Shown here: positions 6,860 to 32,966 of the stretch, in pieces
How the letters are laid out: every line of letters starts with the position of its first letter
Position numbering within the stretch: the first letter of the stretch is position 1
Source: Candidatus Peregrinibacteria bacterium
GTDB lineage: Bacteria; Patescibacteriota; Gracilibacteria; Peribacterales; Peribacteraceae
Direction of reading: 5' to 3'
Length of the DNA: 45,658 nt
Assembly: GCA_016178535.1 (NCBI GenBank)
Contig: JACOTD010000075.1
Span: forward strand, 1 to 45,658
Made by a program: the position numbers and the translations under genes
Notes under the pieces: model-generated
Seen by the model: the letters and a program-made list of their open reading frames with translations, nothing else
Database searches by the model: none
What the model was told of the DNA's origin: nothing

Positions 6860-7636
6860 ATGGCCAAGGACCTTCAACACATCATCGAATCGATCGGACT
6901 GCCGGAGAAGGAAGCCTCCTTGTACTTGGCGGGGTTGCAGTTGGGATCGGCCCCCGCATCAAGCTTCGCGAAGGCCGCTCGTCTCAACCGCATCACGACG
7001 TATCATCTTCTCGAACAGATGGTTCATGCGGGGCAGTTCACCGTGGTCCGCAAGCTCCGAGCGAAGTGGTACGCGCCCGTCTCGCCGGAATCGCTCGCCG
7101 TCGAGGCGCGCAAGCATGTCGAAACGTTCGAGCGAGTGCTCCCGGAACTCCGCTCCCTTCATGGCGCGCAGTACCGCAAGCCCCACGTGCGCTTCTTCGA
7201 GGGATGGGAGGGCGTGCGCCACGTGTACGACGACACGCTGACGGCGACGACCGAACTCCTGAACTTCGCCAACTCCGCGGCCGTTCGGGCATTCTGGCCG
7301 GAGTACGACCTCGAGTACGTCGCGCTGCGCGTGGAGCGTGGCATCCGCCTGCGAGGCATCGCGCCCGACGACGCTACGGGGCGGCGCGTGCACGGGGAGG
7401 ATCGCAAACGCCTGCGGGAGATCAGGCTCGTGCCGGCGAAGGATTTCGACTTCGGCAACGAGATCAACATCTACGATTACAAAGTGGCCATCTGCTCGTT
7501 TGGCACCGGCAGCCACGAAGACGTCTTCGGGGTCATCATCGAGAGCAAGGAAGTGGCCGAAACGCAGCGGCAGATTTTCGAGATGGCGTGGAGATACGCG
7601 AAGCGAGAGGGAGCGAGAGAGAAGAGAGCGCGATGA
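6860..7636 (+). CDS. TrmB-family HTH transcriptional regulator
   Basis: N-terminal winged-HTH typical of TrmB-like proteins (GLPEKEASLYLAGLQLGSAPASSFAKAARLNRITTYHLLEQM). Divergent from glnA. Start at MAKDLQ. Confidence 0.75.
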   Translation: MAKDLQHIIESIGLPEKEASLYLAGLQLGSAPASSFAKAARLNRITTYHLLEQMVHAGQFTVVRKLRAKWYAPVSPESLAVEARKHVETFERVLPELRSLHGAQYRKPHVRFFEGWEGVRHVYDDTLTATTELLNFANSAAVRAFWPEYDLEYVALRVERGIRLRGIAPDDATGRRVHGEDRKRLREIRLVPAKDFDFGNEINIYDYKVAICSFGTGSHEDVFGVIIESKEVAETQRQIFEMAWRYAKREGAREKRAR

Positions 7637-7641
7637 TGTTT

Positions 7642-7677
7642 CTTGGTACTTGGCACTTCGCTATTCGCACTTGGCGC
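7642..7677. repeat. single-armed heptad tandem repeat (CTTGGTA CTTGGCA CTTCGCT ATTCGCA CTTGGCG)
   Basis: Five tandem 7-mers immediately after the regulator stop codon. No clear complementary arm nearby. Confidence 0.7.
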
Positions 7678-8125: not shown

Positions 8126-8872
8126 TCACGAAGAACGATTTTGTCGATGACGAACAACGAGGAGCGGAAACACCACCACCGCGTTCCAGATCCTTTTCCA
8201 TCGCCGCGGCTCGAGCACAAGTCTCCAGAGCCACTCGAGGCCGAGATACTGAAAAACTCGAGGAGCGCGCGCACGTTCCCCGGCGAGAAAATCAAAGGTG
8301 CCCCCGACTCCCATCGCCACACGCACGCTTGGGAGGTCTTTCAGGTGATCGGCAATCCACAGATCCTGCGCCGGCGCGCCGAAGGCGACGAGGAGGAGGT
8401 GTGGAGATGCGGCGTTGATGCGGTCGATCATCGCCTGAGCGTCTTCCGATCGCGGTGAACCGGAGAAGGTTCCGACGATGCGCAACTCGAGATTCTTCGC
8501 GATGAGCGCCGCAGCCGCCATCGGTGCAATGCCCGGGGGCGCGCCGAGCAGGAAGACGGGATGATCCGCAGGGAGACGCGCACAGAGGGCATGGACCGTG
8601 TCGACACCGGTGACGCGCGCAGGGAGATTCTGGCCCGTGAAGCGCGCCATGAAGAGGAGACCCACACTGTCGGGGAGATTGAGCGCCGCGTGCTGGAGCA
8701 CACGACGGAAGGCGGCATTGCGGTGGGCCTCGACGAGCATCTCGCTGTTGGGAGTTGCGACGTGATGGGGGGCGGGATCTTCGAGAAGTGCCATGAGCCG
8801 CACAACGGCTTCGTGCGTCGTGACGGGATCGAGCGGAACGCCAAGGAGAGTGACGCGAGAGAGAGCAGACAT
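8126..8872 (-). CDS. WecB/TagA/CpsF-family glycosyltransferase
   Basis: Motifs LLGVPLDPVT, ATPNSEM, GVGGTFDFLAGERARAP, GLEWLWRLVLEP. Trimmed to the ATG at 8872 (MSALSRV). Confidence 0.85.
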   Translation of the reverse strand: MSALSRVTLLGVPLDPVTTHEAVVRLMALLEDPAPHHVATPNSEMLVEAHRNAAFRRVLQHAALNLPDSVGLLFMARFTGQNLPARVTGVDTVHALCARLPADHPVFLLGAPPGIAPMAAAALIAKNLELRIVGTFSGSPRSEDAQAMIDRINAASPHLLLVAFGAPAQDLWIADHLKDLPSVRVAMGVGGTFDFLAGERARAPRVFQYLGLEWLWRLVLEPRRWKRIWNAVVVFPLLVVRHRQNRSS

Positions 8873-9989: not shown

Positions 9990-10672
9990 ACGAGATGGTT
10001 CCTCCTCCACTCCTCGATCTTTGCATGATTCCCCGAAAGAAGAATGTCAGGAACGCGCATGCCGCGGAATTCTTCTGGGCGCGTGTAGTGGGGGTATTCC
10101 CTTTTTCGACTGAGCTTCTTCGAGAAACTTTCTTCATGAGCGGATTCCTCTTTCCCGAGCACTCCAGGCAGTTGGCGAGCGAGCGCATCGATGAGCACCA
10201 TGGCGGGGAGCTCCCCGCCCGTGAGCACGTAGTCGCCGATGGAAATCTCTTCATCGATCCATGTATCGATCACGCGCTGGTCGACGCCTTCGTAGTGCCC
10301 GCAGAGGAGGAGGATCCATTCGTGCTTCGTCGCGAGACGCTCGACCTCCGGCTGTGTGAGGCGCTTGCCGCGCGGAGAGAGGTACACACAAAGCGGCCCC
10401 CCAGACAGGACCCCTCCTCCTCCCCCGGAGGAGGGGACGGGGGTGGAGGCAATGGTTTCAATCGCCTTCACAACCGGCTCGGCCATCATCACCATTCCCG
10501 CCCCGCCGCCGTACGGACTGTCGTCGACTTGCCTGTGTCTCCCTCGGGCAAATGCGCGAATGTCATGCACATGAATCTCGAGGATCCTCTCTTCTTGCGC
10601 TCGCTGAAGGATGCTCTCGGTCAGAGGGCCTTGGAACATGGCCGGGAACAGGGTGAGGACATCGATGCGCAT
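9986..10672 (-). CDS. trmD: tRNA (guanine37-N1)-methyltransferase
   Basis: Motifs MRIDVLTLFPAMF, DDSPYGGGAGMVM, CGHYEGVDQRV, SIGDYVLTGGELPAMVLIDA. Carries an in-frame repeat insertion at 10411-10449. Confidence 0.9.
   Translation of the reverse strand: MRIDVLTLFPAMFQGPLTESILQRAQEERILEIHVHDIRAFARGRHRQVDDSPYGGGAGMVMMAEPVVKAIETIASTPVPSSGGGGGVLSGGPLCVYLSPRGKRLTQPEVERLATKHEWILLLCGHYEGVDQRVIDTWIDEEISIGDYVLTGGELPAMVLIDALARQLPGVLGKEESAHEESFSKKLSRKREYPHYTRPEEFRGMRVPDILLSGNHAKIEEWRRNHLV
10411..10449 (+). repeat. G-rich hairpin module embedded in frame in trmD
   Basis: CCCCTCCTCC-TCCCCC-GGAGGAGGGG-ACGGGGGTGGAGG, the same module as at 1291-1328. Read on the minus strand as STPVPSSGGGGGV. Confidence 0.8.
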
Positions 10673-11660: not shown

Positions 11661-13460
11661 TCAATCAATGGTAGGAAATGACAATTTCGCGCGAATCAAT
11701 TCGATCAATTCATCCACGAAGAACGGCCGCCCGTCGTACTTCAGAATCTTCTCATTGATCTCCAGGCCGCACTCCTGGCGAATGAGCACCCCCAGCTGCC
11801 CCTGGTAATTCTGCTCCACGAGGATGATCTTCTTCGCCTTCTTCGCGAGTGCTTGGAGGCGCTCCGTCTTCAAGGGCCACAGATACGTAAAATGCAAATA
11901 GCCGATTCTCTTCCCGCCGAACTTCTCATCTGCAAGTGCATCCAACACTGTGTCCTTCGAGCTCCCCCATCCAACAATGAGACAATCCAATAATGGAGAC
12001 TCATTCGTAATTCGTCCTTTTCCATTTTCAATTTTCCAGAGTTCCGGCTCCGGCAAAGCCTGCTTCAAACTCTCCAGCTTCCGCATCCTCTTCTCCATCT
12101 GTTCCTTCGCGTTCTTGGCCGTCTCATCCACGGTGCCATCTGCATTGTGTTCGTCTCCCTGCGCGCAGTACGTGGCGGCGTTGGACCCGGGAAGCCACCG
12201 CAGCGAGATGCCGTCTTTGACGTTGGGATCGTAGCGATCCGTTCCCTTGAGTTCCTTCAACGCTGCAGGATCGGTGACGAGTTTTCCTCGCTCGACCTTG
12301 ACCTTCGTCTGATCGAAGGGAGTCTGCGTGTAGAGCGCCTCCGCGACCTGCTTGTCCGTGAGGACGATGACGCTGATCTGGAACTCCTCGGCCAGGTTGA
12401 ATGCGACGGGCATCAGATCGAATGCATCCTGACTGTCGCTCACGGCGAGCACGCACCGCGCAAACTCCCCGTGCGCGGTGTGGATCGCCATCAGGAGATC
12501 GCCCTGCGCGGTCCACGTGGGGAGGCCGGTGGCCGGCCCCGGGCGCTGCGCAAGCACGAAGACCGTTGGGTTTTCGAGGATGCCGTTCAAGGAAAGCGTC
12601 TCGCTCATGAGGTCGAAGCCTCCACCCGAGGTCGCGGTGAGCGCGCGCGCGCCCATGAACATCGCTCCGGTGACGATCTGCGCCGCTGTGATCTCGTCCT
12701 CCGCCTGCTTGAGAACCATGCCCGTCTGGTTCTGCAGATCGGCAATGAAGGAGAGGAGCGGACTCGACGGCGTCATCGGATACCCGGCGTACAGACGAAC
12801 GCCAGCGTGCATGGCGCCGAGCCCCATCGCCTGGCTTCCGGTCACGAGCAGGTGATCCTTCCAGACGGGATCGGAGGATGGGAGTGTGACGGAGACACGA
12901 CCGGCCGCAGGATCCGTGTACGAGAATCCTTCCTCGATGCACTTCATGTTGAGCTCCAGGAGATTCTTCTTCTTGGCGAACCGTTCGCCGACGAGCGCTT
13001 TGAGCTCGTCTTTGTCCTGTCCGAGCGCGGCCCACAGGAACGCGGCCAGGAGGACGTTGCCGAGGATCGGTTTGGCTCCGAGTCTCTTGAGGATTTCCTC
13101 GAGCGGGATCGCGATGACGGTACTCTTCCGCGAGCGGAGGAGCTTCTGATCTTCCGGAGAGAATTTCCACTCGGGTGTGAGGTGGATGAGCACTCCGCTC
13201 TCCTTCACATCCGCGAGGTTATGCTCGAGGCCGTGGTGATTGAGCGCCATGACCGCGTTGACCTTCGTCTCCGCGCTGCGGACGCGATCGTTGCTGCAAT
13301 CGAGCTGGTAGGACGCATGGCCGCCCTTGATGAGGGAGGGATACTCGCGATAACCGAACACGCAGTACCCCGCGCGCTTGAGCCCCTTGGCCACGATCTC
13401 CCCGATCGAGTTGATGCCCTGGCCGGATGCGCCGACGATTTTGAGGGAGATGCGTGTCAT
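11661..13460 (-). CDS. korA: 2-oxoacid:ferredoxin/flavodoxin oxidoreductase, fused gamma-alpha subunit
   Basis: 599 aa. N-terminal gamma-like domain (GASGQGINSIG), then alpha-domain motifs GYPMTPSSPLL and ENPTVFVLAQRPGPATGLPT. Confidence 0.9.
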   Translation of the reverse strand: MTRISLKIVGASGQGINSIGEIVAKGLKRAGYCVFGYREYPSLIKGGHASYQLDCSNDRVRSAETKVNAVMALNHHGLEHNLADVKESGVLIHLTPEWKFSPEDQKLLRSRKSTVIAIPLEEILKRLGAKPILGNVLLAAFLWAALGQDKDELKALVGERFAKKKNLLELNMKCIEEGFSYTDPAAGRVSVTLPSSDPVWKDHLLVTGSQAMGLGAMHAGVRLYAGYPMTPSSPLLSFIADLQNQTGMVLKQAEDEITAAQIVTGAMFMGARALTATSGGGFDLMSETLSLNGILENPTVFVLAQRPGPATGLPTWTAQGDLLMAIHTAHGEFARCVLAVSDSQDAFDLMPVAFNLAEEFQISVIVLTDKQVAEALYTQTPFDQTKVKVERGKLVTDPAALKELKGTDRYDPNVKDGISLRWLPGSNAATYCAQGDEHNADGTVDETAKNAKEQMEKRMRKLESLKQALPEPELWKIENGKGRITNESPLLDCLIVGWGSSKDTVLDALADEKFGGKRIGYLHFTYLWPLKTERLQALAKKAKKIILVEQNYQGQLGVLIRQECGLEINEKILKYDGRPFFVDELIELIRAKLSFPTID

Positions 13461-13470: not shown

Positions 13471-13536
13471 GCGAATGGCGAGTTGCGAGTTACGAATCAT
13501 TCGTCACTCGTAACTCGTAATTCGTAATTCGTAATT
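13471..13536. repeat. heptad-repeat hairpin (GCGAATG/CGAGTTA/CGAATC | ATTCGTC/ACTCGTA/ATTCGTA...)
   Basis: The left arm lies in the flavodoxin-korA spacer. The right arm encodes the last ~10 codons of flavodoxin. CGAGTTACGAA pairs with TTCGTCACTCG with one mismatch. Confidence 0.85.
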
Positions 13537-13998
13537 TCCTTGTACAGTTTTCATCAACTCCTCGCCCCAGTGCTTCACTTTCTCCTCCTGCCCATACGGC
13601 TCATTGACGATCGTGAGCATCGGGATGATTTCCACGCCATGGTGTTCTGCGACGAAGGATTGCAGATGCGCCCCCGCCCCCGCCGTGTAGAAGTACCGAT
13701 CATCCCCCAGCGCGATGAGGGCGACCTTCCTGCCCGTCAGATCGACATCGTTCGCGCGATCACGAAGCAGAGCGAACATGTGCGGATTGAGCTGCCCTTC
13801 CTGCCCGCCCGTGTTCCAGGTGGAAGAGGCGAGCAAGAGCACATCGCCCGCGAGGAGATCCGCCGCTTGGGCTTCCTCCGCCCGCTTCACGAGAAGCGTC
13901 CATGTCGCGAGATCGCGGCGCAGCAGATCCGTGAGCAGACCGACCACGTACTCCGTGTGACCGCTCGTGGAGGCCTCGATGATCTGCAGAGAAGGCAC
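13504..13998 (-). CDS. flavodoxin
   Basis: FMN phosphate loop STSGHTEYV, then LLASSTWNTG. 164 aa, GTG start. The C-terminal NYELRITSYE is encoded by the repeat arm. Confidence 0.8.
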   Translation of the reverse strand: MPSLQIIEASTSGHTEYVVGLLTDLLRRDLATWTLLVKRAEEAQAADLLAGDVLLLASSTWNTGGQEGQLNPHMFALLRDRANDVDLTGRKVALIALGDDRYFYTAGAGAHLQSFVAEHHGVEIIPMLTIVNEPYGQEEKVKHWGEELMKTVQGNYELRITSYE

Positions 13999-14011: not shown

Positions 14012-14210
14012 CAGCATGGACATGGTGTCCCGGAATCACGGGGGATGTTTTCGCAGTTTTTTTATCGCCTCATTGCTTCGCTTCCTTGCGCAGGGCTTCC
14101 TCCATGACGCGCATGATGGCATGGTCTCTCGCAATGCTGTCGTCGTATTGTTGGAACGTGACCTCGAGAATGCGGGATGAACCGTCTTTTCCCTGCTGTT
14201 TGCTGCGTCG

Positions 14211-14240
14211 TCGAAAACCCAACGGTCTTCGTGCTTGCGC
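14211..14240 (+). repeat. exact 30-nt inverted copy of korA coding sequence (12548-12577)
   Basis: TCGAAAACCCAACGGTCTTCGTGCTTGCGC equals the reverse complement of 12548-12577 (korA codons for ENPTVFVLAQ). The match ends abruptly at both edges. Confidence 0.95.
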
Positions 14241-14527: not shown

Positions 14528-16603
14528 ATGAGCCTCCTCTCCCCCACCTCCATCGCCGTCATTGGGGCATCCTCCGAGGAGAAGAAAGTGGGACATGAAA
14601 TTTTCAAGAATCTCCTCACGCAGGGATACGAAGGAGACGTGTATCCGGTGAACGCGAAGCATCCCGAGATTCTTGGACGCAGAGCGTACGCATCCATCAG
14701 GGACATTCCCGGACCAATCGATTGCGCAGTGATCGTGACGCCCGCGAAGACGGTGGCGACGATTCTGGATGACTGCGGAGCGAAGGGCATGAAGACGGTC
14801 GTCGTCATCAGCGCGGGATTCGCGGAACTCGGAACCGCTGAGGGTCGCGCCATGGAAGACGAGCTCGCAGCGAAGGCGAAGGAGTATGGCATGGCGCTCG
14901 TGGGACCCAACTGCCTGGGAATCCTGCGACCGGGCATCGGGATGAACGCCTCGTTCGCGGAAGAATTGCCGGCGAGCGGATCCGTCGCGCTCTTGAGCCA
15001 ATCCGGAGCGCTCGCGGTGGCCGTGATGGACGCGGCCCCATCCTTCCATCTGGGCTTCTCGACCGTCATCAGCATGGGGAACAAAGCGACGATGGACGAG
15101 TGTGACTTCCTCGAGCTCTGCGCGGAGGATCCCCAGACGACCGTGATCGGGCTCTACCTCGAGAGCATCACGGACGGGCGGCGGTTCCTGGAAGTCGCTT
15201 CGAACGTTGCAGAAAACAAGCGCATCGTCCTCATCAAATCCGGCGTGACGGAGCACGGGAGGCAATCCGTCTCGTCGCACACGGGCGCGCTCGCGGGATC
15301 GGATGCCGCCATCGACGCCGCATGTACGCAGTGCGGGATGCACCGCGCCAGGACGATGCGGGAATTCTTGAATCTTCTCCGGGTGCTCTCCACGCAGCCC
15401 CCGCTCCCCACTCCGAACATCGCCGTCATCACGAACGCCGGTGGGCCGGGCATCCTCGCCACCGATGCCGCGGAGCAGGCGGGGCTGCAACTTCCTTCAC
15501 TCGATCACAAGAACGACCAAGCCTTGAAAGTGAAGCTCCCGCCCGCCGCGAGCACCCATAATCCCATCGACGTACTGGGGGACGCACTCGCCGATCGCTA
15601 CGGTGCGGCGATGGAAGCGGCGGCGGACGATCCGGGGATCGACGGGATCGCCGCTCTCCTCACGCCCCAGATCATGACGCCGTGCGAGGACATCGCGAGG
15701 GCGGCGGCTGCGACGAAGAAGACGCGCCCTCTCCTCCCGATCGTCGCGAGCTTCATGGGCGACAAGAACGTGCGGAAGGCGATCGCGATCCTCCAGGAAC
15801 ACGGCATCCCGAACTTCGCCTCGCCCGAGGAAGCCATCGATGCTCTGGCGACTCTGCGTCCATGTTCACGAATGACGACGCAGACGAATAGTGTCGATAT
15901 CAAGCGCCAAAGAAGCGCTCAAGCATTGCTGAACGGAACGAGCGGCCTCCTCGGTGAAGAAGCAATGGAGAAGCTCCTCGCCCTCTACGTGCTCCCGATT
16001 CCCGCGCAGACGCTCGTGCGGAAGAGAGAGGAAATTCCACGCGCGATCGAAGTGCTCGGTTTCCCGCTCATCGCGAAAATCAGCGCGCCGGAGATCCTCC
16101 ACAAGACCGACGTCGGTGGCGTGCGGGTGAACATTCGGACCATGGAAGATGCGATCTCCGCCTTCGAACACATCGTAAACACGGTCCGGAAGAACCGACC
16201 GGATGCAGCCATTCGCGGGGTGCTCTTCCAGCGCTTCCTCCCGGCCGGCGACGAGTTCATCGTCGGAGCGCTGCGGGATCCATCGTTCGGGCACCTGCTC
16301 ATGACGGGTCTCGGGGGCATCTACACCGAACTCTTCCGCGATACCGCCTTCCGCATCGCTCCCGCCGAGACTCAGGACGCCTACGCGATGCTCCAGGAAC
16401 TGAAGGCGTGGAAGCTCCTGCTCGGCATGCGCGGCAAAGAGCAAGCGGACATCGATGCGCTCGTGGACGTGATCGTGCGCACGGGGATGCTCGTCACCGA
16501 GTGCCCCCAGATCCGCGAGCTCGACTTCAACCCGGTGATCGTGGATGCAAACGGCGTGACGATCGCGGATGCGAAGGTCATTGTGGACAAGAATGACGAA
16601 TGA
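14528..16603 (+). CDS. acetyl-CoA synthetase (ADP-forming), fused alpha/beta
   Basis: 691 aa. N-terminal CoA-binding and succinyl-CoA-synthetase-like domains (SIAVIGASSEEKKVGH, LLSQSGALAV) plus a C-terminal ATP-grasp domain (PLIAKISAPEILHKTDVGGV). Confidence 0.9.
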   Translation: MSLLSPTSIAVIGASSEEKKVGHEIFKNLLTQGYEGDVYPVNAKHPEILGRRAYASIRDIPGPIDCAVIVTPAKTVATILDDCGAKGMKTVVVISAGFAELGTAEGRAMEDELAAKAKEYGMALVGPNCLGILRPGIGMNASFAEELPASGSVALLSQSGALAVAVMDAAPSFHLGFSTVISMGNKATMDECDFLELCAEDPQTTVIGLYLESITDGRRFLEVASNVAENKRIVLIKSGVTEHGRQSVSSHTGALAGSDAAIDAACTQCGMHRARTMREFLNLLRVLSTQPPLPTPNIAVITNAGGPGILATDAAEQAGLQLPSLDHKNDQALKVKLPPAASTHNPIDVLGDALADRYGAAMEAAADDPGIDGIAALLTPQIMTPCEDIARAAAATKKTRPLLPIVASFMGDKNVRKAIAILQEHGIPNFASPEEAIDALATLRPCSRMTTQTNSVDIKRQRSAQALLNGTSGLLGEEAMEKLLALYVLPIPAQTLVRKREEIPRAIEVLGFPLIAKISAPEILHKTDVGGVRVNIRTMEDAISAFEHIVNTVRKNRPDAAIRGVLFQRFLPAGDEFIVGALRDPSFGHLLMTGLGGIYTELFRDTAFRIAPAETQDAYAMLQELKAWKLLLGMRGKEQADIDALVDVIVRTGMLVTECPQIRELDFNPVIVDANGVTIADAKVIVDKNDE

Positions 16604-16659
16604 GAAAATTGAACCTTGATTCATCGCTCGAAACAGTCTCATACATACACCAAAACACC

Positions 16660-16685
16660 GCAGGCAAGTATGCCTGCTCCTCAGG
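16660..16685 (+). repeat. GCAGGCA-AGTA-TGCCTGC hairpin element, copy A
   Basis: 7-bp stem, AGTA loop and trailing TCCTCAGG. Related to copies at 27130-27157 and 38468-38496, with an A/T compensatory pair in the stem. Confidence 0.8.
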
Positions 16686-16952: not shown

Positions 16953-17055
16953 GGACATTCGACGTGTCTCTGCCACCATTTTATTCAAAGCGTATCTCGT
17001 GCTCGTTAGCGGAGACAGGAGTCATGATCGCGGATGTGAAGGGTATCGTTGAGTA

Positions 17056-17129
17056 GAATTGCGAAGGGCGATTGGCGAGTTGCGAATGATGAGGCAAATT
17101 CGCAACTCGCAAGTTGCAACTCGCAATTC
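17056..17129. repeat. heptad-repeat hairpin (TTGCGAA type)
   Basis: GAATTGCGAAGGGCGATTGGCGAGTTGCGAAT - loop - AATTCGCAACTCGCAAGTTGCAACTCGCAATTC. Lies in a divergent spacer upstream of the GT2 gene. Confidence 0.85.
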
Positions 17130-17147
17130 TCCAGTATTCTACGATCC

Positions 17148-19013: not shown

Positions 19014-19080
19014 CGTTGCTTGTTCGCTTGTTGTCTTGATGAGTGGAAAAAAACGAGCAACGAGCGAACCAGCGAACAAA
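19014..19080. repeat. octamer-repeat hairpin (GTTGCTT GTTCGCTT GTTGTCTT | AGCAACG AGCGAACC AGCGAACA)
   Basis: Arms are built from tandem ~8-mers that are mutually complementary. Lies in the tandem spacer after the NIF3-like gene. Confidence 0.8.
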
Positions 19081-20760: not shown

Positions 20761-20904
20761 GGCGAGCAAGTATAGGAAGTTTCATGGCCAATGCAAAGCA
20801 AAATTTGCTCCAGAGGAAAGTGGATCAGTGGTTCAGTGTTCAGAGAAATGACCACTACCATGACTCTGAACCGCTGAACTCTGTACACTGTACTCTTGCT
20901 CGCC
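20761..20904 (-). promoter_or_regulatory. structured infC-rpmI spacer (outer 10-bp stem enclosing a heptad-repeat hairpin)
   Basis: GGCGAGCAAG (20761-20770) pairs with CTTGCTCGCC (20895-20904). The inner arms are 20826-20845 and 20864-20883 (TTCAGTG repeats). The outer stem ends 1 nt from the rpmI start codon. Confidence 0.55.
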
Positions 20905-20919: not shown

Positions 20920-21408
20920 TCATCGCTTGGGTCGGAGGATCGTGATGAACTGGTCCCCCTGCCGCTTGATCTCCTGCTCAATCTCGGCTCTATCGAGGAG
21001 CCCATTGATCATGCCCTTGAGTTTGTCGATGGCGTACTCCTTGTTGGAGAGCTCACGGCCGCGCAGCCGCACCGAGAACTTCACGAGGTGGCGTTCGGCG
21101 AGGAATTCCCGCGCGCGCTGCGAGAGACGGTCCAAATCGTGCCGATCGGTGCGGAAGCCGAACCGCAGCATCTTCACCTCCACCTGCTTGCTGTGGCTGC
21201 GCTGCTTCTTCTCCTTCTTCTGCAATTGGTAGAGGAAGTGCCCGAACTCCGCGATCTTCACGACGGGCGGGACGGCCTTGGGGGAGACTTCGATCAAGTC
21301 GAGTTCCGCCGCGCGCGCCCGCTCGAGGGCGACGCTCGTCGGGAGCACTTCGGCTTTGCCCCCATCGGAAACGAGCATCACCTCCGGCACGCGGATCTGC
21401 TCATTCAT
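20920..21408 (-). CDS. infC: translation initiation factor IF-3
   Basis: MNEQIRVPEVMLVSDGG, DLIEVSPKAVPPVVKIAEFGHFLYQ, and a C-domain KMLRFGFRTDRHDL. Conserved infC-rpmI-rplT order. Confidence 0.9.
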   Translation of the reverse strand: MNEQIRVPEVMLVSDGGKAEVLPTSVALERARAAELDLIEVSPKAVPPVVKIAEFGHFLYQLQKKEKKQRSHSKQVEVKMLRFGFRTDRHDLDRLSQRAREFLAERHLVKFSVRLRGRELSNKEYAIDKLKGMINGLLDRAEIEQEIKRQGDQFITILRPKR

Positions 21409-21509
21409 GCGTGGGCGTCGCTCCTGGTGTTTGTGACGATGGTCGAACCGATGACGTTGTCGCAGAGAGGACAGGGGAAGAGATGTGAAAAGTATAGCCT
21501 TTCCGAGGA

Positions 21510-21578
21510 GAATTGCGAAAGGCGAATGGCAAGTTGCGAATGAATGACCAATCCCCAAATCGCAACTCGCCCTTCGCC
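21510..21578. repeat. heptad-repeat hairpin (TTGCGAA type) with CCAATCCCCA in the loop
   Basis: GAATTGCGAAAGGCGAATGGCAAGTTGCGAATG - AATGACCAATCCCC - AAATCGCAACTCGCCCTTCGCC. Confidence 0.85.
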
Positions 21579-21617
21579 TGCCCTGAGTTATATCGAAGGG
21601 CATTTCGCACATCGTGC

Positions 21618-22484
21618 TCATTTCCTCCCGTACGCCCCCCCCAGAAACGAGACCTTCTCCCATCCCTGATCCGCGGTCTTCTCGATCGTCACATCCCGCG
21701 CGCGCAGGAACGGCAGCGGCCAGAGCTTCGCCTGGAGGAGTGCGTCGCCCATTTTCCCGCCAAGGAGCGACTGCACCTCTTCGAGGATCGACTCATGGAC
21801 AATCGTGCGGAGTGTTTGGTCAAAGCTCTCATCGGCGACGGCGTGAGCGAGGCGGTCGACCGCCTGCGCATCGCGCGCGAAGGTGAAGAGATCCATGCGG
21901 AGGAATTGCTCGAGCGAGACGATGCTCGAGGGATGCTGCGCCTCCACCGACGAGATGAGTTCCTGGATCTGCGAGGCTGTGAGAGTATCGGACACGGTGA
22001 GGAGCCCGGAGATCCGCAGCAGCGAAAGCGCGGCCTTCAACCCTTCATCACGCACGATCATCGTGAAGTGCAACGGCAACACGTTGACGGTCTGACCCGA
22101 AATAGTCTCCTCGCGAGGATCCAGAATGGTGATGGGAGAGAGGTCGCGGAGCATCCTCTGAGAACGCAGGTGAGTCTGGAGCACATCGAAGACGGCGAGG
22201 ACGCGGGTGCGATCGATCTTGGAAGGGAGCACGAAAACGTGCAATCGTTCGGCTTGCGATCCGGTATGGAGATCCCCTGCGCTCGCGACGTCGATCTCCT
22301 GCGCGAGGAGCGTGCTTCGATGCTGGAGCGCCGTGACGTCGGCTGCGAGCGGCAGGCCTTGATCGCGCGCATCGCGGATGGCGACCGTCTGCCTCCCGAT
22401 CAATTGCCCCGAGAGAACCAGGAAGAGCGCGCCCGTGAGCGCGAGGAGGGAGTGCAAACGCCGTTGGTGGAAGAGAGAGATCAT
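21618..22484 (-). CDS. hypothetical bitopic membrane protein (PilO-like topology)
   Basis: 288 aa. One N-terminal TM helix (LLALTGALFLVLSG), then a soluble domain. ATGA overlap with the upstream gene. Confidence 0.55.
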   Translation of the reverse strand: MISLFHQRRLHSLLALTGALFLVLSGQLIGRQTVAIRDARDQGLPLAADVTALQHRSTLLAQEIDVASAGDLHTGSQAERLHVFVLPSKIDRTRVLAVFDVLQTHLRSQRMLRDLSPITILDPREETISGQTVNVLPLHFTMIVRDEGLKAALSLLRISGLLTVSDTLTASQIQELISSVEAQHPSSIVSLEQFLRMDLFTFARDAQAVDRLAHAVADESFDQTLRTIVHESILEEVQSLLGGKMGDALLQAKLWPLPFLRARDVTIEKTADQGWEKVSFLGGAYGRK

Positions 22485-23083
22485 CGCAGGTGAAGGGTGA
22501 GCGAAAAGGGAGAATGCGGACCGGTTGCGGGATCATCTTCACGTGTGAAGACGGGATTGGGAATGTCGGCGATCTCCGGGAGTTTCGTCAGCTGATCGAC
22601 GAAGGCCGCGAGCAACGTCATGCAGTGGGGACCGACATGCCGTACGTCGCCCTCGAGAACGAGCAGCTTCTGATCCGCACGGTACGCCGAACGATCGAGG
22701 TGAATGGCATCGGGGACGGAGGTGAGAGATGCCGCCTGCGCGAGGATCTTTCGTTGCAGCAACGAGAGATCCCCTTCCCCCGCCCGCGCCGCCTTGAGGG
22801 CATCGTAGATCGCATCCTGGAGCGGGAGCAGAAGCATCTCGCGCCGTTGAACCTGCGTGTGCACGTGCGCCGTGAGCTGCGAGCGACGTATGCGGAGCTG
22901 ATCGATGGAGGAGAGCGATCCGTCCGCCTCGATGCGCGTGAGACGCGGAAGGAGCGTTGCCGACGCAACAATCAGGAGAGACGTGAGCGATCCCGCAAAG
23001 AGGAAGAGCGGCAGCGAGACTCGCTCAAGAATTCCGCATGTGCGCACCGTGGGTGCCGTGTCTGGAGCAGGAAGCATGTTCAT
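22481..23083 (-). CDS. hypothetical bitopic membrane protein (PilN-like topology)
   Basis: 200 aa. N-terminal TM helix (LPLFLFAGSLTSLLIVASATLL), a coiled segment, and a C-terminal LVLEGDVRHVG...FSLTLHL. Confidence 0.55.
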   Translation of the reverse strand: MNMLPAPDTAPTVRTCGILERVSLPLFLFAGSLTSLLIVASATLLPRLTRIEADGSLSSIDQLRIRRSQLTAHVHTQVQRREMLLLPLQDAIYDALKAARAGEGDLSLLQRKILAQAASLTSVPDAIHLDRSAYRADQKLLVLEGDVRHVGPHCMTLLAAFVDQLTKLPEIADIPNPVFTREDDPATGPHSPFSLTLHLR

Positions 23084-23113
23084 GTGTTTTCCTTATAGTA
23101 TAGCAGAAAGAAG

Positions 23114-23193
23114 GACGATTTACGAGTTACAGAATTACGAATTACGAATGAAAACCCGATACTCCAATCCCCATTCGTAATTCGTAAATCGTC
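23114..23193. repeat. heptad-repeat hairpin (TTACGAA type) with CCAATCCCCA in the loop
   Basis: GACGATTTACGAGTTACAGAATTACGAATTACGAATG - loop with CCAATCCCCA - ATTCGTAATTCGTAAATCGTC. Lies in a divergent spacer upstream of prfB. Confidence 0.85.
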
Positions 23194-23259
23194 ATTGCCC
23201 AAACATGCTTTTCTTCCACCAATCCTCTACACTCCAAGCATTCCATTTCCCCCTTTCCC

Positions 23260-25422: not shown

Positions 25423-26364
25423 TCACCCCCTCCGCATCTCCGGCTCCAGATACGGAACTCCCAGAGCCGCGTAGATGTCTTCTTCCTCTTTGCTCGCGAT
25501 CATCTTCTCTCCTTCGAAGAGACCGTACTCGCTCAGCTTCCACCCGCGGTCGATGGCGCGCTTGCGCAGCGTGATGTTGTGCTCTTTGTCGCCCGTGAAG
25601 TAGAGCAGCGCGCTCCCCCACTGCGCTTTCTTCACAAAACGAACATCGACTCTCAAACCAGATTGCAGATTGAACGAGAGCTTTCGCTCCCCGTGCGCCA
25701 CCACCTCGCGGACGATGGGAAGCGCGGCAATGGCATCGGAGATCTTCTTGGCATTCCTCGTGACAACGATGATGTCGAGGTCGCCGATCGTTTCTTTGTT
25801 GCGCCGGTACGATCCCGCGATCTCCGCGCGCTCCACGCCCTCGACGCCGCGAACCGTCTTCAACAGCATCTCGGCATCGGCTTCAATTTCTCCGCGAGGG
25901 AATCGCCTCGAGCGTTCCGCCACGTTCCTGGCATTCGCGAGGATCTTCTGCTCGATGACATCCGAGAAGCGGGGAAGCGCCCTGAGCTTCCCCTTCTGCG
26001 CCGCGGCAATGAGCTGAGGAACCGTCGTGATGCCGAGTGTTTGCAGTTGCCGCACGCGCTTGGGACCCAGATCCTCCACTTCCATGAGTTCCGCAGAAAG
26101 TCCACCCTGCGCGGCGAGCAGTTCATCCAGATGATGGATGCGTCCCGTCTGCACGAATTCGATGATCTTCCCCGCAATCGCCTCCCCGATCCCCGGCAAT
26201 TCCATCAATTTCTTCTTGTCCGCGATGAGCGAGACATCCCTCGGCACATCCTCCACCACCTGCGCGGCCCTGCGGTACGCCGCCGGCTTGAACGCCACTC
26301 CCTGCTCATCGAGCAGCGCAGCGATCTGGCGCAATTGCCCTGCGAGCTGATGATTGAGAGTCAT
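25423..26364 (-). CDS. family X DNA polymerase (Pol beta-like core, no PHP domain)
   Basis: HhH motifs (LPGIGEAIAGKI, GPKRVRQL) and the nucleotidyltransferase motif GSYRRNKETIGDLDIIVV. 313 aa. Confidence 0.85.
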   Translation of the reverse strand: MTLNHQLAGQLRQIAALLDEQGVAFKPAAYRRAAQVVEDVPRDVSLIADKKKLMELPGIGEAIAGKIIEFVQTGRIHHLDELLAAQGGLSAELMEVEDLGPKRVRQLQTLGITTVPQLIAAAQKGKLRALPRFSDVIEQKILANARNVAERSRRFPRGEIEADAEMLLKTVRGVEGVERAEIAGSYRRNKETIGDLDIIVVTRNAKKISDAIAALPIVREVVAHGERKLSFNLQSGLRVDVRFVKKAQWGSALLYFTGDKEHNITLRKRAIDRGWKLSEYGLFEGEKMIASKEEEDIYAALGVPYLEPEMRRG

Positions 26365-27114: not shown

Positions 27115-27171
27115 CACTGGGCAAGGGTCGCGGGCAAGTATGCCCGCTCCTCAGGGGATAAAATTACTTTC
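27115..27171 (+). repeat. GCGGGCA-AGTA-TGCCCGC hairpin element, copy B
   Basis: CACTGGGCAAGGGTCGCGGGCAAGTATGCCCGCTCCTCAGGGGATAAAATTACTTTC. Closely related over roughly 55 nt to the reverse complement of 38454-38510 (scattered mismatches). Confidence 0.85.
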
Positions 27172-27180
27172 GAAGATTCT

Positions 27181-27217
27181 TCATTCGTAATTCGTAATTC
27201 GTCACTCGTAAATCGTC
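27181..27217. repeat. single-armed heptad repeat (ATTCGTA type)
   Basis: CATTCGTAATTCGTAATTCGTCACTCGTAAATCGTC. Its reverse complement is about 32/36 identical to the left arm at 23114-23150. Lies just 3' of ahcY. Confidence 0.85.
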
Positions 27218-27224
27218 ATTCCCG

Positions 27225-28478
27225 TCACGTCCCCTCCTCCCAACTCGACAAATACTTCTTCTGCTCGTCAGTGAGAGTGTCGATCGTGAGTCCCATCGCC
27301 TCAAGCTGGAGGTGTGCGATGAAGTCGTCGATTGCGGGCGGGAGCGTGATGACGCCGGGAGCGAGCTTCCCTTTGTTCTTCACGAGGTACTCGCACGCGT
27401 GCGCCTGGCCGCAGAAGGAGAGGCTCATCACTTCGCTCGGGTGGCCCTCCGCCGAAGCGAGATTCACGAGACGCCCTTCGCCGGCGACGTAGAGGATGTT
27501 GCCCGAGGGGAGAAGGTACTCGTCGAGGTAGTGGCGCACCCGGCGCTTGCGGCGCGCATTCTTCTCGAGCGCCTGGAGATCGATCTCGCAGTCGAAGTGG
27601 CCGGAATTCGCGAGGACGACGCCGTCCTTCATGCGTTCCATGTGCTCCAGGCGGATCACGTGAATGTCGCCCGTGACGGTGATGAAGAGATCCCCGAGCG
27701 GGGTGGCCTCCGCCATCGGCATCACGCGGTGCCCGTCCATCGCCGCCTGGAGCGCGGCGAACGCGTCGACTTCCGTGACGATCACCTGCGCGCCGAGCCC
27801 CTGCGCGCGCAGCGCAACGCCCTTGCCGCAGCTCCCGTACCCGAGGACGACGATCGTCTTCCCGGCGATGAGGAGGCCCGTCGAGCGGAGGATGCCGTCG
27901 ATGGTCGACTGGCCCGTGCCGTAGTAGTTGTCCATCAGGTGTTTGGTCTTGTTGTCGTTCACCGCGATCATGGGGATCGTGAGGACGCCGTCGCGCTGCA
28001 TCGAACGGAGCCGGATGATGCCCGTCGTCGTCTCCTCGCAGCCGCCGAGCATGGAGGGAAGAAGATCGGCATGCTTGCGGTGGATCTCGGAGACCAGATC
28101 GCAGCCGTCGTCGATCGTGATCTGCGGCTGCGTTTCGATCACAGCGCCCAGGAACCGGTAGTAATCCTCGGTGCTCTCACCCCTGTAGGCCCACACTCTC
28201 ACATTCTTCTCCTCCGCGAGAGCCGCAGCGACGTCATCCTGCGTGCTCAAGGGATTGCAGCCCGTGATTGCGACCTCGGCGCCGCCTGCGGTGAGGGTGG
28301 AGACGAGGACGGCCGTCTCTTTGGTGACATGCAGCGCCATGCCGATCGTGAGACCGACGAAGGGCTTCTCCTTGCGGAAGCGCTCGCGTACTGTGAGGAG
28401 CGCGCCCATGCGCTTCTCCGCGAGTTCAATGTTCAAACGACCTTGAGGGGCCAGGGAGGGATCTGTGACGTGGGACAT
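27225..28478 (-). CDS. ahcY: adenosylhomocysteinase (short ~417-aa form)
   Basis: Motifs TKETAVL, CNPLSTQDDVAAAL, NAD site VLGYGSCGKGVA, NSGHFDCEID. Start at MSHVTDP. Confidence 0.9.
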   Translation of the reverse strand: MSHVTDPSLAPQGRLNIELAEKRMGALLTVRERFRKEKPFVGLTIGMALHVTKETAVLVSTLTAGGAEVAITGCNPLSTQDDVAAALAEEKNVRVWAYRGESTEDYYRFLGAVIETQPQITIDDGCDLVSEIHRKHADLLPSMLGGCEETTTGIIRLRSMQRDGVLTIPMIAVNDNKTKHLMDNYYGTGQSTIDGILRSTGLLIAGKTIVVLGYGSCGKGVALRAQGLGAQVIVTEVDAFAALQAAMDGHRVMPMAEATPLGDLFITVTGDIHVIRLEHMERMKDGVVLANSGHFDCEIDLQALEKNARRKRRVRHYLDEYLLPSGNILYVAGEGRLVNLASAEGHPSEVMSLSFCGQAHACEYLVKNKGKLAPGVITLPPAIDDFIAHLQLEAMGLTIDTLTDEQKKYLSSWEEGT

Positions 28479-28480
28479 AC

Positions 28481-28573
28481 GAAATTGAAAATGGATACTT
28501 GAAAATTGAACATGAGGGAAGCTACTCTTGCAATACGCAGAATTGTCAATTATCAATTGTCCATTGTCAATTC
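28481..28573. repeat. imperfect repeat hairpin (TTGAAAA / TTGTCAA units)
   Basis: The left arm GAAATTGAAAATGGATACTTGAAAATTGAAC matches the reverse complement of the right arm GAATTGTCAATTATCAATTGTCCATTGTCAATTCC at about 24/30. The right arm overlaps the kinase stop. Confidence 0.7.
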
Positions 28574-29518
28574 CGGGAGTCTCTCCCCATACGTCTCCTC
28601 CGCTCTGCCGAAAATGTCATCGATGTCCACGTGATCGAGGAGCGTGCCTTCCCTCTCCACGACGAAGGAGGCGATGGAAGCGCCCAGCATCCCGCACTGC
28701 CGAAGGTCCCATCCTGAAGCGAGGCCTGCGAGAACTCCAGCGCGCAGTGCATCGCCCGCCCCCGTGGGGTTCACCAGAGCATCCGGCCTGCAGGCCGGGA
28801 GGATGATCGCCGGTTCCTTGCGGCGGTAGATCGTGAGGCCTTCTTCCCCGGCAGTGACGATGAGGAGAGGAGTGAGATCGAGGAGTTTGCTCGTGGAAAC
28901 TCCGACCTTCTCGGAGAGGAGGCTCCATTCGTAGGTGTTGGCAATCACTCCGGCGGCGCCCTCGATGGCACTGACGAGTTCATCGCGGCTGAGAGCGATC
29001 ACCTGCTGCCCCGGATCGAAGAGGTAGGGCACCTTCCACACGCGGCACCAGCGGACGGCCTGCATCATCGCGGTCGGATCGCGCGGGCTCACAATGGCAT
29101 GGACGAACTCTTCGCGCTGATCGGCGAGATCTGCCGGCCAGGAGGCATGGGCATCCGCGCCCGGGTGGAAGAAGGCGATCTGCCGCTCGCCGGTATCGGT
29201 CCCGATGATCGCCGTCGCCGTCACGCAGTCCGAGCGCACTTCAATGCGCGAGGTGTCGATGCCGCGCTCACGAAGCAGCGCGAGGTACGCCTCGCCATCG
29301 GCGCCGACGGAGGAGACGAGGAGAGGATTCTGGACGAGCAATTTCAAATTCCACGCGATGTTGGCGCCCGTGCCGCCGTGGTGTCGCGCGAAGTGCGGGC
29401 TGAAGAACGAGACGGAGAGATGCTCCAGATCCGAGGGATCGATGGCATCGCGGAATGACCCGTCGTAGCCGAGGAGGAGATCGTAGGCGATGGAACCGGT
29501 GACCAAAATATGCGTCAT
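28553..29518 (-). CDS. PfkB-family carbohydrate/nucleoside kinase (adenosine-kinase-like by context)
   Basis: Motifs HHGGTGANIAWN and C-terminal NPTGAGDALRAG. Start at MTHILVTGS (alternative ATG at 29527). Upstream of ahcY on the same strand. Confidence 0.8.
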   Translation of the reverse strand: MTHILVTGSIAYDLLLGYDGSFRDAIDPSDLEHLSVSFFSPHFARHHGGTGANIAWNLKLLVQNPLLVSSVGADGEAYLALLRERGIDTSRIEVRSDCVTATAIIGTDTGERQIAFFHPGADAHASWPADLADQREEFVHAIVSPRDPTAMMQAVRWCRVWKVPYLFDPGQQVIALSRDELVSAIEGAAGVIANTYEWSLLSEKVGVSTSKLLDLTPLLIVTAGEEGLTIYRRKEPAIILPACRPDALVNPTGAGDALRAGVLAGLASGWDLRQCGMLGASIASFVVEREGTLLDHVDIDDIFGRAEETYGERLPELTMDN

Positions 29519-29543
29519 GGAATTCATGATACCATGGGATCCC

Positions 29544-30956: not shown

Positions 30957-31278
30957 GAGAAGCGGCTTGCAACATCAACAAATGATGCGCCTTATCCAAG
31001 GCGAGTTCCCGGAGTTGCTTGAAGGTCATGTCTGAAGCTCGCTCTGCTCCGGGATCATGCTCAAGCAAAGCATCCGCCACTGCGACGATCATGTCTGGAT
31101 CGGCAAACGCAACGTCACGTCCATCGATCGCAACGGAGAGTTTTGAATCGTTGTTCAGTGCTCGGCGAAGATTCGCAATCAGCTGTTGACGGACATCCTT
31201 GATAGCTGAAGTGCGAACTTTTGCATCAGGGTGGATCTCAGAAGATGAGCACGAAGGCGGAGGCGTGAGAATGGCCAT
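30859..31278 (-). CDS. hypothetical protein (possible antitoxin-like; doubtful 3' end)
   Basis: ATG at 31278 (MAILTPPP). Lower-GC spacer. The last ~33 codons are Arg-rich and overlap the 3' end of ugd, so the true end is uncertain. Confidence 0.3.
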   Translation of the reverse strand: MAILTPPPSCSSSEIHPDAKVRTSAIKDVRQQLIANLRRALNNDSKLSVAIDGRDVAFADPDMIVAVADALLEHDPGAERASDMTFKQLRELALDKAHHLLMLQAASLRRSQSHGRRAPPRAPRSARRRSGRRRDLSLS

Positions 31279-31380
31279 AGGGAAGAGCTTTGCATTGTGT
31301 CGAAAAACCACTGCGAAGCAAGCAAAAAGAGTCATGAAGCTGCTTTTCTCCACCTGATTGGTTAAAATTCCCCTACCTCT

Positions 31381-32328: not shown

Positions 32329-32331
32329 AAA

Positions 32332-32392
32332 ACAAGGAGTACAAGGAGTACAAAGAATAGAGAACGTTGTATTCCTTGTCTTCCTTGTCTTC
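32332..32392. terminator. nonamer-repeat hairpin between convergent genes
   Basis: ACAAGGAGTACAAGGAGTACAAAG - loop - TTGTATTCCTTGTCTTCCTTGTCTTC. Same architecture as the heptad hairpins. No U-tract. Confidence 0.5.
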
Positions 32393-32400
32393 TTCGTTCG

Positions 32401-32835
32401 TCATCCAGCAACCACCACCGCCCCCTCCTGCACTTCCTTCTTGACCTTCAAACCGATCACGTCGCCCTTCTTCGCCTTGGCGATCGGCTGGTGTTCCATT
32501 TGCATGGAGGAGACGCGCTGCGTGAGAACGTGCTCGCCCTTCTTGAGGAGAACGGTGTCTCCGAGCTTGAGCGGCGCGTTCAGATCCACGATCGCCACGC
32601 CGATCTTGTCGTAGTAGTGAACGACTTTGCCCAGCAGCTTCTCGGTCACTTTCTTCGAAGCCGATGTGACCGTCTTCTTCTTGGCCACGGTCATGACGCG
32701 GGATTTCTTCCTGGGCGGGGACTTCTTCGAAACGACCTTCTTCGCCGCGGCGCGGCTCATTTTTTTCTTCTTCATGCTCTTCGGCTTCTTGGTCATCTTC
32801 TTGGAAATAGTTTTCTTCATCGTGCGCTTGGGCAT
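32401..32835 (-). CDS. Lys-rich tail fused to an EF-Tu-domain-2-like beta-barrel (translation elongation factor-like protein)
   Basis: The N-terminal ~65 aa are K/A/S-rich (MPKRTMKKTISKKMTKKPKSMKKKK...). The C-terminus is GKVVHYYDKIGVAIVDL...GDTVLLKKGEH...SMQMEHQPIAKAKKGDVIGLKV. Confidence 0.65.
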   Translation of the reverse strand: MPKRTMKKTISKKMTKKPKSMKKKKMSRAAAKKVVSKKSPPRKKSRVMTVAKKKTVTSASKKVTEKLLGKVVHYYDKIGVAIVDLNAPLKLGDTVLLKKGEHVLTQRVSSMQMEHQPIAKAKKGDVIGLKVKKEVQEGAVVVAG

Positions 32836-32954
32836 GGCAGAGGGGGGAACGATTCGTATGCTACCCCTGGATTCCAGACAGGCAAGAGTGCATCGGAGTG
32901 GTTTTTTCGTAGAAATTCATGGAGGAGACGACTGTGATCATTGCGTCAAGCGAG

Positions 32955-32960: not shown

Positions 32961-32966
32961 GCAACC

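Follow-up and report, generated by a model that had tools for sequence, protein, structure and literature searches.

What kind of element carries the hairpin at positions 13471-13536 of a 45,658-nucleotide (nt) stretch of Candidatus Peregrinibacteria DNA (contig JACOTD010000075.1 of assembly GCA_016178535.1, referred to here in its whole length as the window), and why does the same design recur at other places in the window in unrelated sequence? The arms of the hairpin are arrays of tandem heptamers: the left arm (13471-13497) reads GCGAATG GCGAGTT GCGAGTT ACGAAT and is followed by a single C, and the right arm (13499-13536) reads ATTCGTC ACTCGTA ACTCGTA ATTCGTA ATTCGTA ATT. The explanation developed below, to which we give about an even chance of being correct, is that these are small non-coding palindromic repeats with tandem-array arms, which would be copied or converted between loci, reshaped by slippage, perhaps maintained by template switching, and would survive where they are harmless.

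A sequence-only reading of the window had listed 13 such places, together with their units, two of them (7642 and 27181) being described as single-armed. All 13 were found by Tandem Repeats Finder to be tandem arrays of period 7, 8 or 9, folding of each locus as RNA gave long stems, and both the unit list and the two single arrays proved correct. Paired arrays are present at 11 of the 13 loci, mostly of period 7, with one or two of period 8 and a single one of period 9, and ten loci form strong hairpins with arms of tandem 7-, 8- or 9-nt units. The units present within 45 kb are of at least seven unrelated types and of three lengths, and the arms of single elements differ in unit number. A detector of ungapped inverted repeats (at least 14 Watson-Crick pairs, loop of at most 60 nt) returned 11 hairpins in the window, ten of which have arms of period 7, 8 or 9, the eleventh being a plain, non-periodic palindrome at 2169-2202; 40 dinucleotide-preserving shuffles gave a mean of 0.7 hairpins and none with periodic arms. 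When each locus was folded as single-stranded DNA and compared with 200 dinucleotide shuffles, ten loci folded better than the shuffles (z from -2.1 to -7.5; z = -6.2 at 13471), and 7642 (z = -0.5), 27181 (z = -0.5) and 36391 (z = -0.2) did not. Of the 11 loci that had earlier been described as two-armed, ten are strong hairpins, and 36391 is a cluster of three arrays and not a clean single hairpin.

The loci with the commonest unit, RCGARTK, are designated family A, and the flagged hairpin at 13471 belongs to it. The four-unit version of this pattern, used in scans, has six matches in the window against 0.00 expected, and family A is present at eight loci in 45 kb. Identity in the family A alignment is 0.76 in register and 0.66 after a 7-nt shift, a comparison biased by arm ends, and the shared order of unit variants in this alignment is suggestive only. 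No G-tracts are found in the units (RCGARTK, TTGAAAA, CGTTTTT, CAAGGAGTA and others), so none has the makings of a G-quadruplex, and no Rfam family matches the hairpins at the gathering score, a tRNA-Ser being the sole match in the window. A loop motif common to the hairpins at 21510 and 23114, CCAATCCCC, is not above chance in the window and was set aside. It had also been proposed that the repeated TAA of TTCGTAA-type arms places stops in all three frames. This is true of only two arms, at 13471 and 41329, and is not a general property, since at five loci neither arm contains a stop codon.

Two of the family A hairpins are inserted in frame in enzymes. The 72-nt hairpin at 30083-30154 (+; z = -5.9) lies within the gene for UDP-glucose 6-dehydrogenase (UGD; 29544-30956, +) and encodes 24 of its residues, REITNDELRVANGTRNSQFVTRNS. 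Alignment of this protein to the solved Burkholderia enzyme (2y0e) breaks at the hairpin, with query residues 176-206 facing chain residues 184-192. In an AlphaFold model (mean predicted local distance difference test score, pLDDT, of 82; predicted template modelling score of 0.80), residues 179-202 have pLDDT below 50 and are positioned between a strand and a helix, and the insert is missing from orthologues with an 8-residue loop. The second copy (41326-41419, -; z = -6.1) lies inside the coding sequence (CDS) of an amine-oxidase-like protein (40023-41795, -), where the hairpin at 41329-41406 falls between the motifs EYLCxEC and KRxAPDP and sits in the one stretch that aligns poorly among three proteins otherwise 75% identical. 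Both copies are palindromic repeats carried in frame by genes of conserved proteins, at sites where the structure is tolerant, a feature in common with elements of the Rickettsia type. In both genes, the unit that would set TAA in frame is a variant (CAA or GAA). The change from TAA to GAA at 41329 opens the frame and leaves an uncompensated mismatch in the stem, and the CAA/TTG pair at 30083 is a variant common within family A; compensatory change at in-frame stops was accordingly rejected as an argument, neither case supporting selection on pairing.

Comparison across Peregrinibacteria revealed that positions are kept while sequence is replaced, which supports the general statement of the sequence-only reading that the shape persists and the sequence does not. 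The term slot is used here for an orthologous position occupied by a hairpin in related genomes, and handles such as L126 denote the individual loci compared. In 53 UGD homologues of Peregrinibacteria type, the loop after PDRIVVG has either a basic 8 residues or as many as ~45 inserted ones. These additional peptides resemble translated heptamer arms and are unrelated between genomes, and every long insert for which DNA was retrieved folds as a periodic-armed hairpin with a differing unit: ACGAGTT in the window, GGACAGT in L126, GCTATGA/CTCACAG in L127, AGCGGTC in L128, GAGTTAC in L137, GGNAATC in L139 and GCAATTG in L321. The z values in this comparison, computed for all of these except L321, range from -2.8 to -6.8, with the window copy at -6.8, and orthologues with a short loop do not fold. 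The L127 element has a right arm that is a perfect fourfold repeat opposite a diverged left arm. The GGNAATC units of L139 (430-516), a Peregrinibacteria-like contig, are close to the Xanthomonas heptamer GGGAATC.

Other slots behave similarly. At the amine-oxidase site, L128 has a hairpin built of another unit and L127 has a one-armed array; hairpins occupy the 3' ends of the PfkB and epimerase genes in the window, L128 and L321, their units being unrelated; and the divergent spacer between a family 2 glycosyltransferase (GT2) gene and an epimerase gene is filled in the window and L128, again with unrelated units. The genomes that share slots (PfkB 3' end, epimerase 3' end, UGD loop, amine-oxidase loop, GT2-epimerase spacer) are ~70% identical in protein. 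In L126, the closest relative (81% UGD identity), the UGD hairpin is present and the PfkB and epimerase 3' hairpins are absent, the flanks at these two 3' ends being too diverged to define empty sites.

The sequence of an element was found to go with the genome that houses it. Twenty-seven elements from five genomes were compared by the Jaccard index of their 6-mers. Same-genome pairs had a mean index of 0.063, with 19% of pairs above 0.1, versus a mean of 0.017 and 1.2% of pairs above 0.1 for different-genome pairs, a difference reached in 0 of 5000 label permutations (p < 1/5000). Pairs from the same slot in different genomes averaged 0.013. For the two in-CDS hairpins, the index is 0.24 within the window, 0.17 within L128 and 0.0 across genomes at the same site. 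Measured by shared 6-mers, these comparisons show that sequence tracks the genome and not the site.

Whole elements are shared as well. In L128, composite palindromic elements of ~150 nt at 8205-8360 and 12941-13090 form two inverted copies, 4.6 kb apart, in each of which a non-periodic outer stem encloses arms made of 8-nt units (CGTTTAYT). Over 114 nt that take in the loop, the non-periodic outer stem and the flanks, their similarity is 91%; a stop codon immediately precedes each full copy, and part of a third copy is found at 21311-21389. The best pair in the window comprises the left arms of the hairpins at 17056 and 21510, which are 90% alike over 39 nt (17051-17089 vs 21505-21543). Sites that grow independently cannot give this pattern: either sequence information moves from locus to locus, through transposition-like copying or through conversion, or a genome-specific factor must constrain all of them. 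Within-genome sharing together with whole-element copies points to copying or conversion. The joint change of both arms had earlier been read as a sign that the fold is what is conserved, with selection on folding implied. That reading is not supported in this form, in that sequence tracks the genome, whole elements are copied, and the removal of a stop at 41329 left its mismatch uncompensated.

In the mechanism envisaged, whole elements or arm sequences would be copied from locus to locus, by a transposition-like process or gene conversion, with the consequence that each genome would have its own unit families. Unit number and unit variants would be altered by replication slippage within an arm. 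The arms would stay largely complementary because they start as inverted copies, and intra-strand template switching, a process that can create, maintain and homogenise hairpin arms (PMC8794818, PMC5941160), may in addition rewrite either arm from the other. Copies would persist only where harm is low, that is, after or over stop codons (sometimes supplying the stop), in divergent spacers, or in frame in disordered surface loops. Transcribed copies would form stems of 20-35 bp without a U-tract, any effect on mRNA ends being secondary, and a role as mRNA 3' stem-loops is possible. A more far-reaching proposal, which we consider doubtful, holds that hairpin-directed copying in Peregrinibacteria, and perhaps in many phyla and viruses, overwrites resident hairpins with the current unit family of the genome. 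If this were true, slots, including the two in conserved enzymes, would stay hairpins for a very long time while their sequence was replaced genome by genome, and the elements would form a novel class, minute in size, mobile or self-homogenising, with units in a 7-nt register and an enzyme responsible for them.

Several observations weigh against copying between loci. Neither the family A copies nor those of L128 are bordered by a target-site duplication, and neither defined termini nor a pair of empty and filled sites was seen in the loci compared. No transposase or other mobility gene was recognized by Pfam among the 37 open reading frames (ORFs) of the window, the only DNA covered by that search, and no RAYT (IS200/IS605-like) gene flanked by repeats is present in the window. 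Several units occur only once in the window, so the status of the elements as families rests mainly on family A and L128. Slot sharing would also be expected if a hairpin were needed at those places. Finally, the hairpin-encoded peptide is nearly invariant in clusters of proteins at least 90% identical, the sole change being a single-residue indel in the hairpin loop; turnover is therefore slow, and ongoing activity is unsupported. Two assemblies of one Hainich groundwater population (L321 and L322) are likewise identical, without variation in unit number, and the repeats are not hypermutable contingency repeats. A split UGD gene in L323 was dismissed as a case of strain variation, this being a long-read contig full of frameshifts.

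Foremost among the competing explanations, and in our judgement an unlikely one, is that the elements are functional RNA stem-loops selected for their fold, acting as U-less terminators, as 3'-end protectors against exonucleases or as intercistronic RNase III sites, tandem-repeat arms being merely the way in which such stems evolve. Its appeal comes from gene context, which was determined from the deposited gene calls, the ORF list and Pfam. Eight of the 11 intergenic loci lie over a stop codon or at most 40 nt downstream of one, and the element is closer to the upstream stop than to the downstream start in seven of eight co-directional spacers, a bias of position also shown by the Xanthomonas arrays. 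The single array of ~5 CTTGGYA units at 7642-7677 lies 5 nt past the stop of the gene at 6860-7636 (+) and has no complementary partner within 200 nt. The right arm of 13471 supplies the last 10 codons and the TGA of a flavodoxin gene (13504-13998, -). The hairpin at 19014-19080, with 8-nt units GTTCGCTT / AGCGAAC (z = -2.1), is 17 nt past a stop at 18996 (+), and that at 20826-20883 (GTTCAGT / CTGAAC; z = -3.6) lies 36 nt past the infC stop in the infC-rpmI spacer, both genes being on the minus strand. A family A hairpin at 21510-21579 (z = -4.3) follows the stop of the gene at 21618-22484 (-) by 39 nt. The family A array at 27181-27221, with five to six ATTCGTA units and a partner of one unit at most, lies 3-7 nt past the stop of the S-adenosylhomocysteine (AdoHcy) hydrolase gene at 27225 (-), the distance being 7 nt from the end given in the sequence-only reading (27217). 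The hairpin at 28483-28572 (TTGAAAA / TTGTCAA; z = -4.7), in a conserved slot, covers the last six codons and the stop of the PfkB gene (28553-29518, -); as in the flavodoxin gene, the Pfam domain ends well short of the repeat. Another conserved slot, between convergent genes, is occupied at 32327-32393 by a hairpin of 9-nt units CAAGGAGTA (z = -5.4), the repeat at 32332-32392 being 3 nt past the epimerase stop (32328) and 8 nt past the stop of the gene at 32401-32835 (-). The filling of this epimerase slot and of the PfkB 3' slot in the window, L128 and L321 with unrelated sequence is what selection for a stem would produce, and the window shows no clear excess of canonical terminator-like sites (23 observed and 17.1 +/- 4.6 expected; 22 observed and 15.4 +/- 3.6 expected).

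Other features of the distribution speak against such a function. As had been stated at the outset, two CDSs harbour elements and so do spacers of tandem, convergent and divergent type, the divergent ones being those of the family A hairpin at 23111-23196 (z = -5.9), between the gene at 22481-23077 (-) and a release-factor gene (23360, +), and of the cluster at 36391-36495, in which a CGTTTTT array (from 36396) and two complementary arrays precede an epimerase gene (36517, +). Copies are also found within probable operons 2-10 nt ahead of the next start (flavodoxin-oxidoreductase, PfkB-AdoHcy hydrolase, infC-rpmI): the start of the oxidoreductase gene (11661-13460, -) is 10 nt from the 13471 hairpin, and the 28481 hairpin ends 2-4 nt before the AdoHcy hydrolase start (28478). 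In either of the two CDSs, termination or RNase III cleavage would be harmful. The stems, of 20-35 bp, have no U-tract, and none of the listed loci was called by a scan of the window for hairpins followed by a T-run, which agrees with the sequence-only reading on this point. Folding of both strands revealed no consistent gene-strand preference in the asymmetry of G-U and A-C pairs, with four loci agreeing, two disagreeing and the rest symmetric or of unassignable strand, and wobble pairs were dropped as evidence for an RNA role. Single-armed arrays also exist, and the sharing of units by unrelated slots of one genome is left unexplained.

The exception among the co-directional spacers is the family A hairpin at 17055-17130 (27/33 pairs; z = -7.5), which lies 18 nt upstream of the start of a glycosyltransferase gene (17148, +). 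It directly follows a second copy (17018-17065) of the terminal part of the acetyl-CoA synthetase gene and was probably also stop-adjacent before an insertion of ~465 nt. The last 48 nt of that gene (16553-16600) recur in the duplicate at 75% identity across the ~465-nt segment, which holds a short ORF that looks HicB-like by eye and has no Pfam match; the true acetyl-CoA synthetase stop codon lies within family A-like sequence, GACGAATGA. Near other loci, the ATTGACA units at 28542-28570 (-) give a 10/12 match to a sigma-70-like consensus (TTGACA, 17-nt spacer, GACAAT) shortly ahead of where the AdoHcy hydrolase gene starts, and a TTCGCA unit of the 21510 hairpin could serve as a -35-like box for a TATACT -10 upstream of infC, both being consensus matches only. 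A HEPN / nucleotidyltransferase gene pair of toxin-antitoxin-like type (32919-33652, +) adjoins the region of the 32332 hairpin.

A second alternative, which appears improbable, would have the hairpins arise as local mutational by-products, each growing on site from a short inverted repeat by slippage and intra-strand template switching, with neither transfer nor function. Period 7 dominates here as in other reports of over-represented heptamers (PMC4692102), unequal arm lengths, single-armed arrays and perfect sub-arrays are features that slippage would leave, the spacer is often filled right up to the stop codon, and template switching is a documented source of hairpins (PMC8794818, PMC5941160). 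Growth on site nevertheless fails to account for the likeness of distant loci over whole elements, including loops and non-periodic flanks, for units that are common within a genome and not between genomes at the same slot, or for in-CDS hairpins of two genes that carry the same family within each genome.

Still less probable is the proposal that the units are binding sites, in a 7-nt register, for a genome-specific DNA- or RNA-binding protein, the inverted layout placing sites on both strands; an OB-fold or cold-shock-type protein, a nucleoid protein, or a recombinase that moves the elements would be candidates. Such a protein would make sequence follow the genome, a cold-shock protein binds one heptamer per monomer, as has been discussed for TAACTGA repeats (PMC4679880), and the TTGACA-like units of 28481 give the promoter-like match described above. 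At least seven unit types of three lengths in 45 kb are, however, too many for one protein, no candidate protein was identified, and the in-CDS copies have no obvious use. Local growth and binding-site arrays both explain less.

That the repeats are assembly or chimeric artefacts, as can happen when short-read assemblers are misled by short repeats, is refuted for practical purposes by three independent assemblies that agree base for base over the repeats, by in-CDS copies that keep the reading frame, and by the same architecture in many unrelated isolates and metagenome-assembled genomes (MAGs). Positions 5304-45658 of the window match contig JACQFC010000068.1 of MAG GCA_016200245.1 with two mismatches, neither in a repeat, and over 27886-35215 and 42917-45548, stretches that include the hairpins at 28481, 30083 and 32332, the window is reproduced without a single difference in Logan assemblies from two separate runs. 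The GC content of the window (~59%) is close to the 58.5% of complete Peribacteria genomes, whose description makes no mention of such repeats (PMC4736985). The best UGD homologues are named Candidatus Peregrinibacteria, Peribacteria or Peribacteraceae, and the gene order is common to MAGs so named; protein names and synteny thus make a groundwater Peregrinibacteria genome the most likely source of the window.

Additional repeats and oddities were observed in the window. The non-periodic palindrome noted above is the perfect core (2169-2202) of an 80-nt spacerless palindrome (2146-2225) between an HhH-GPD glycosylase gene and the next gene; its arms are 80% complementary and not periodic, and its outer ends (GAATGAATTC...GGAATTCATTC) resemble family A flanks. 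A second dispersed family consists of GC-rich hairpins (CCTCCTCC..GGAGGAGGGG..) at 1095-1454, 10353-10452 and 35196-35267. Within it, 1198-1269 and 35196-35267 are 89% complementary over 72 nt, 1295-1331 and 10416-10452 are 89% identical, and 1095-1139 and 1410-1454 are 45-nt inverted repeats that flank a segment of ~270 nt and give it the look of a miniature inverted-repeat transposable element (MITE). A third small family, a stem-loop of GCGGGCAAGTATGCCCGC and then TCCTCAGG, is found at 16658-16685, 27117-27178 and 38447-38508, with copies 82-89% alike, one of them immediately to the left of the 27181 array. A 36-nt segment of a 2-oxoacid:ferredoxin oxidoreductase CDS (12548-12583) is 94% complementary to 14205-14240, 1.6 kb away in the spacer upstream of the flavodoxin gene, and could be an antisense pairing site or a gene fragment. 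The ARAGORN tRNA call at 42924-42994 (-), with a four-base anticodon (tgag), finds no support at the Rfam gathering score and is probably false. A gene for a family X (beta-like) DNA polymerase lies at 25423-26364 (-) and also in the syntenic regions of L128 and L321; polymerases of this family are of the gap-filling type known for slippage.

Hairpins of this architecture occur beyond the contig, in related and other genomes and in viral contigs. Periodic-armed hairpins number 10 in the 45.7 kb of the window (2.2 per 10 kb), 8 in 103 kb of Peregrinibacteria-like metagenome loci chosen via UGD (0.78 per 10 kb) and 8 in 591 kb of UGD loci from other phyla (0.14 per 10 kb). Among the matches listed in a scan of one-genome-per-species contigs, the four-unit family A pattern occurs in at least 120 stretches, with hosts in Verrucomicrobia, Bacteroidota, Chloroflexota, Acidobacteriota, Planctomycetota, Nostocales and others, and many of these 8-kb loci hold further hairpins with other heptamer units. 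The pattern was also found in 112 IMG/VR stretches (L209-L320), whose 964 kb yielded 98 periodic-armed hairpins, 82 having period 7; several of these contigs, among which there may be prophages or cellular contamination, have three or more sites.

The window offers a compact system for the question of how heptamer repeats spread, with the paired hairpin form dominant and a host genome that is probably small, judging by the ~1.25 Mb of related Peribacteria. Two copies are locked in frame in conserved enzymes, so that orthologous sites can be traced across the lineage, and the combination of conserved position with genome-specific sequence narrows the mechanisms to copying or conversion between loci. 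A general mechanism would bear on annotation (false C-termini, split genes), on the biology of mRNA ends in organisms lacking classical terminators and on the entry of selfish DNA into proteins.

The elements had been proposed to belong to no described class, and this is upheld insofar as no Rfam family matches them, but precedents exist in Xanthomonas, in cyanobacteria and Beggiatoaceae, and in Rickettsia (PMC4692102, PMC4679880, PMC10969869). Xanthomonas genomes each contain 183-186 GGGAATC arrays, mostly of ~4 units, and in 70-75 instances two arrays are set in opposite orientation, a layout capable of folding into a stem-loop or cruciform (PMC4692102). About 90% of these arrays are intergenic, at a mean of 28 nt from the upstream ORF, far closer than to the downstream ORF (Rehm et al. 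2015, PMC4692102), and array lengths differ between related species (PMC4692102). The likeness to the window lies in paired tandem heptamer arrays on opposite strands, mostly intergenic and nearer the end of the upstream ORF. The Xanthomonas arrays, however, have one G-rich unit, studied as a quadruplex former, whereas the window has many unrelated units of 7, 8 and 9 nt without quadruplex capacity. Unlike those of Xanthomonas, the window elements have a host in the candidate phyla radiation (CPR), include in-frame CDS insertions and occupy conserved slots with genome-specific sequence.

Direct repeats of TAACTGA are found in Beggiatoaceae, cyanobacteria and Bacteroidetes, mostly just upstream of start codons (MacGregor, PMC4679880), and in a Beggiatoa genome one case among 170 TAACTGA sets is inverted (PMC4679880). 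These and the short tandemly repeated repetitive (STRR) sequences resemble the window elements as short tandem heptamers at many dispersed intergenic sites of one genome, with lineage-specific units and a distribution that is patchy over phyla, including phyla matched by the family A scan. They are mostly direct arrays, in contrast to the window, where 11 of 13 loci are inverted pairs and most are beside stop codons, the host is not cyanobacterial and the units are other than the named STRR units. STRR heptanucleotide repeats have been used as cyanobacterial fingerprinting markers for decades, and Elhai has reportedly described small dispersed repeats in cyanobacteria.

Repetitive extragenic palindromic (REP) elements and REPINs are comparable as short, imperfect, high-copy palindromes with genome-specific sequences in 3' untranslated regions (3' UTRs) or intercistronic spacers, and REP elements act on mRNA stability without a U-tract. 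They differ in having a fixed non-repetitive sequence, a conserved 5' head and a RAYT gene flanked by REPs, whereas the arms in the window are tandem arrays, and the family A alignment has no common head, its similarity lying at the level of units and partial unit order. Rho-independent terminators share the placement of a stem-loop just past a stop codon, in one case between convergent genes, but the window stems have no T-run, are much longer (20-35 bp) and are also found in divergent spacers, before starts and in CDSs.

MITEs, like the window elements, are non-autonomous palindromic repeats, and the ~150-nt element of L128 has MITE dimensions; the window copies differ in that neither a target-site duplication nor conserved termini were seen, and most are only 55-95 nt long. 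Rickettsia palindromic elements are inserted in frame in unrelated metabolic genes, and some MITEs favour the 3' UTRs of ORFs (PMC10969869). Copies of the Rickettsia elements at one site keep their sequence, whereas sites of the type described here change sequence between genomes. The architecture itself has thus been described before; what appears to be undescribed is its presence in a CPR host, the large variety of units, the slots conserved within genes and the turnover specific to each genome.

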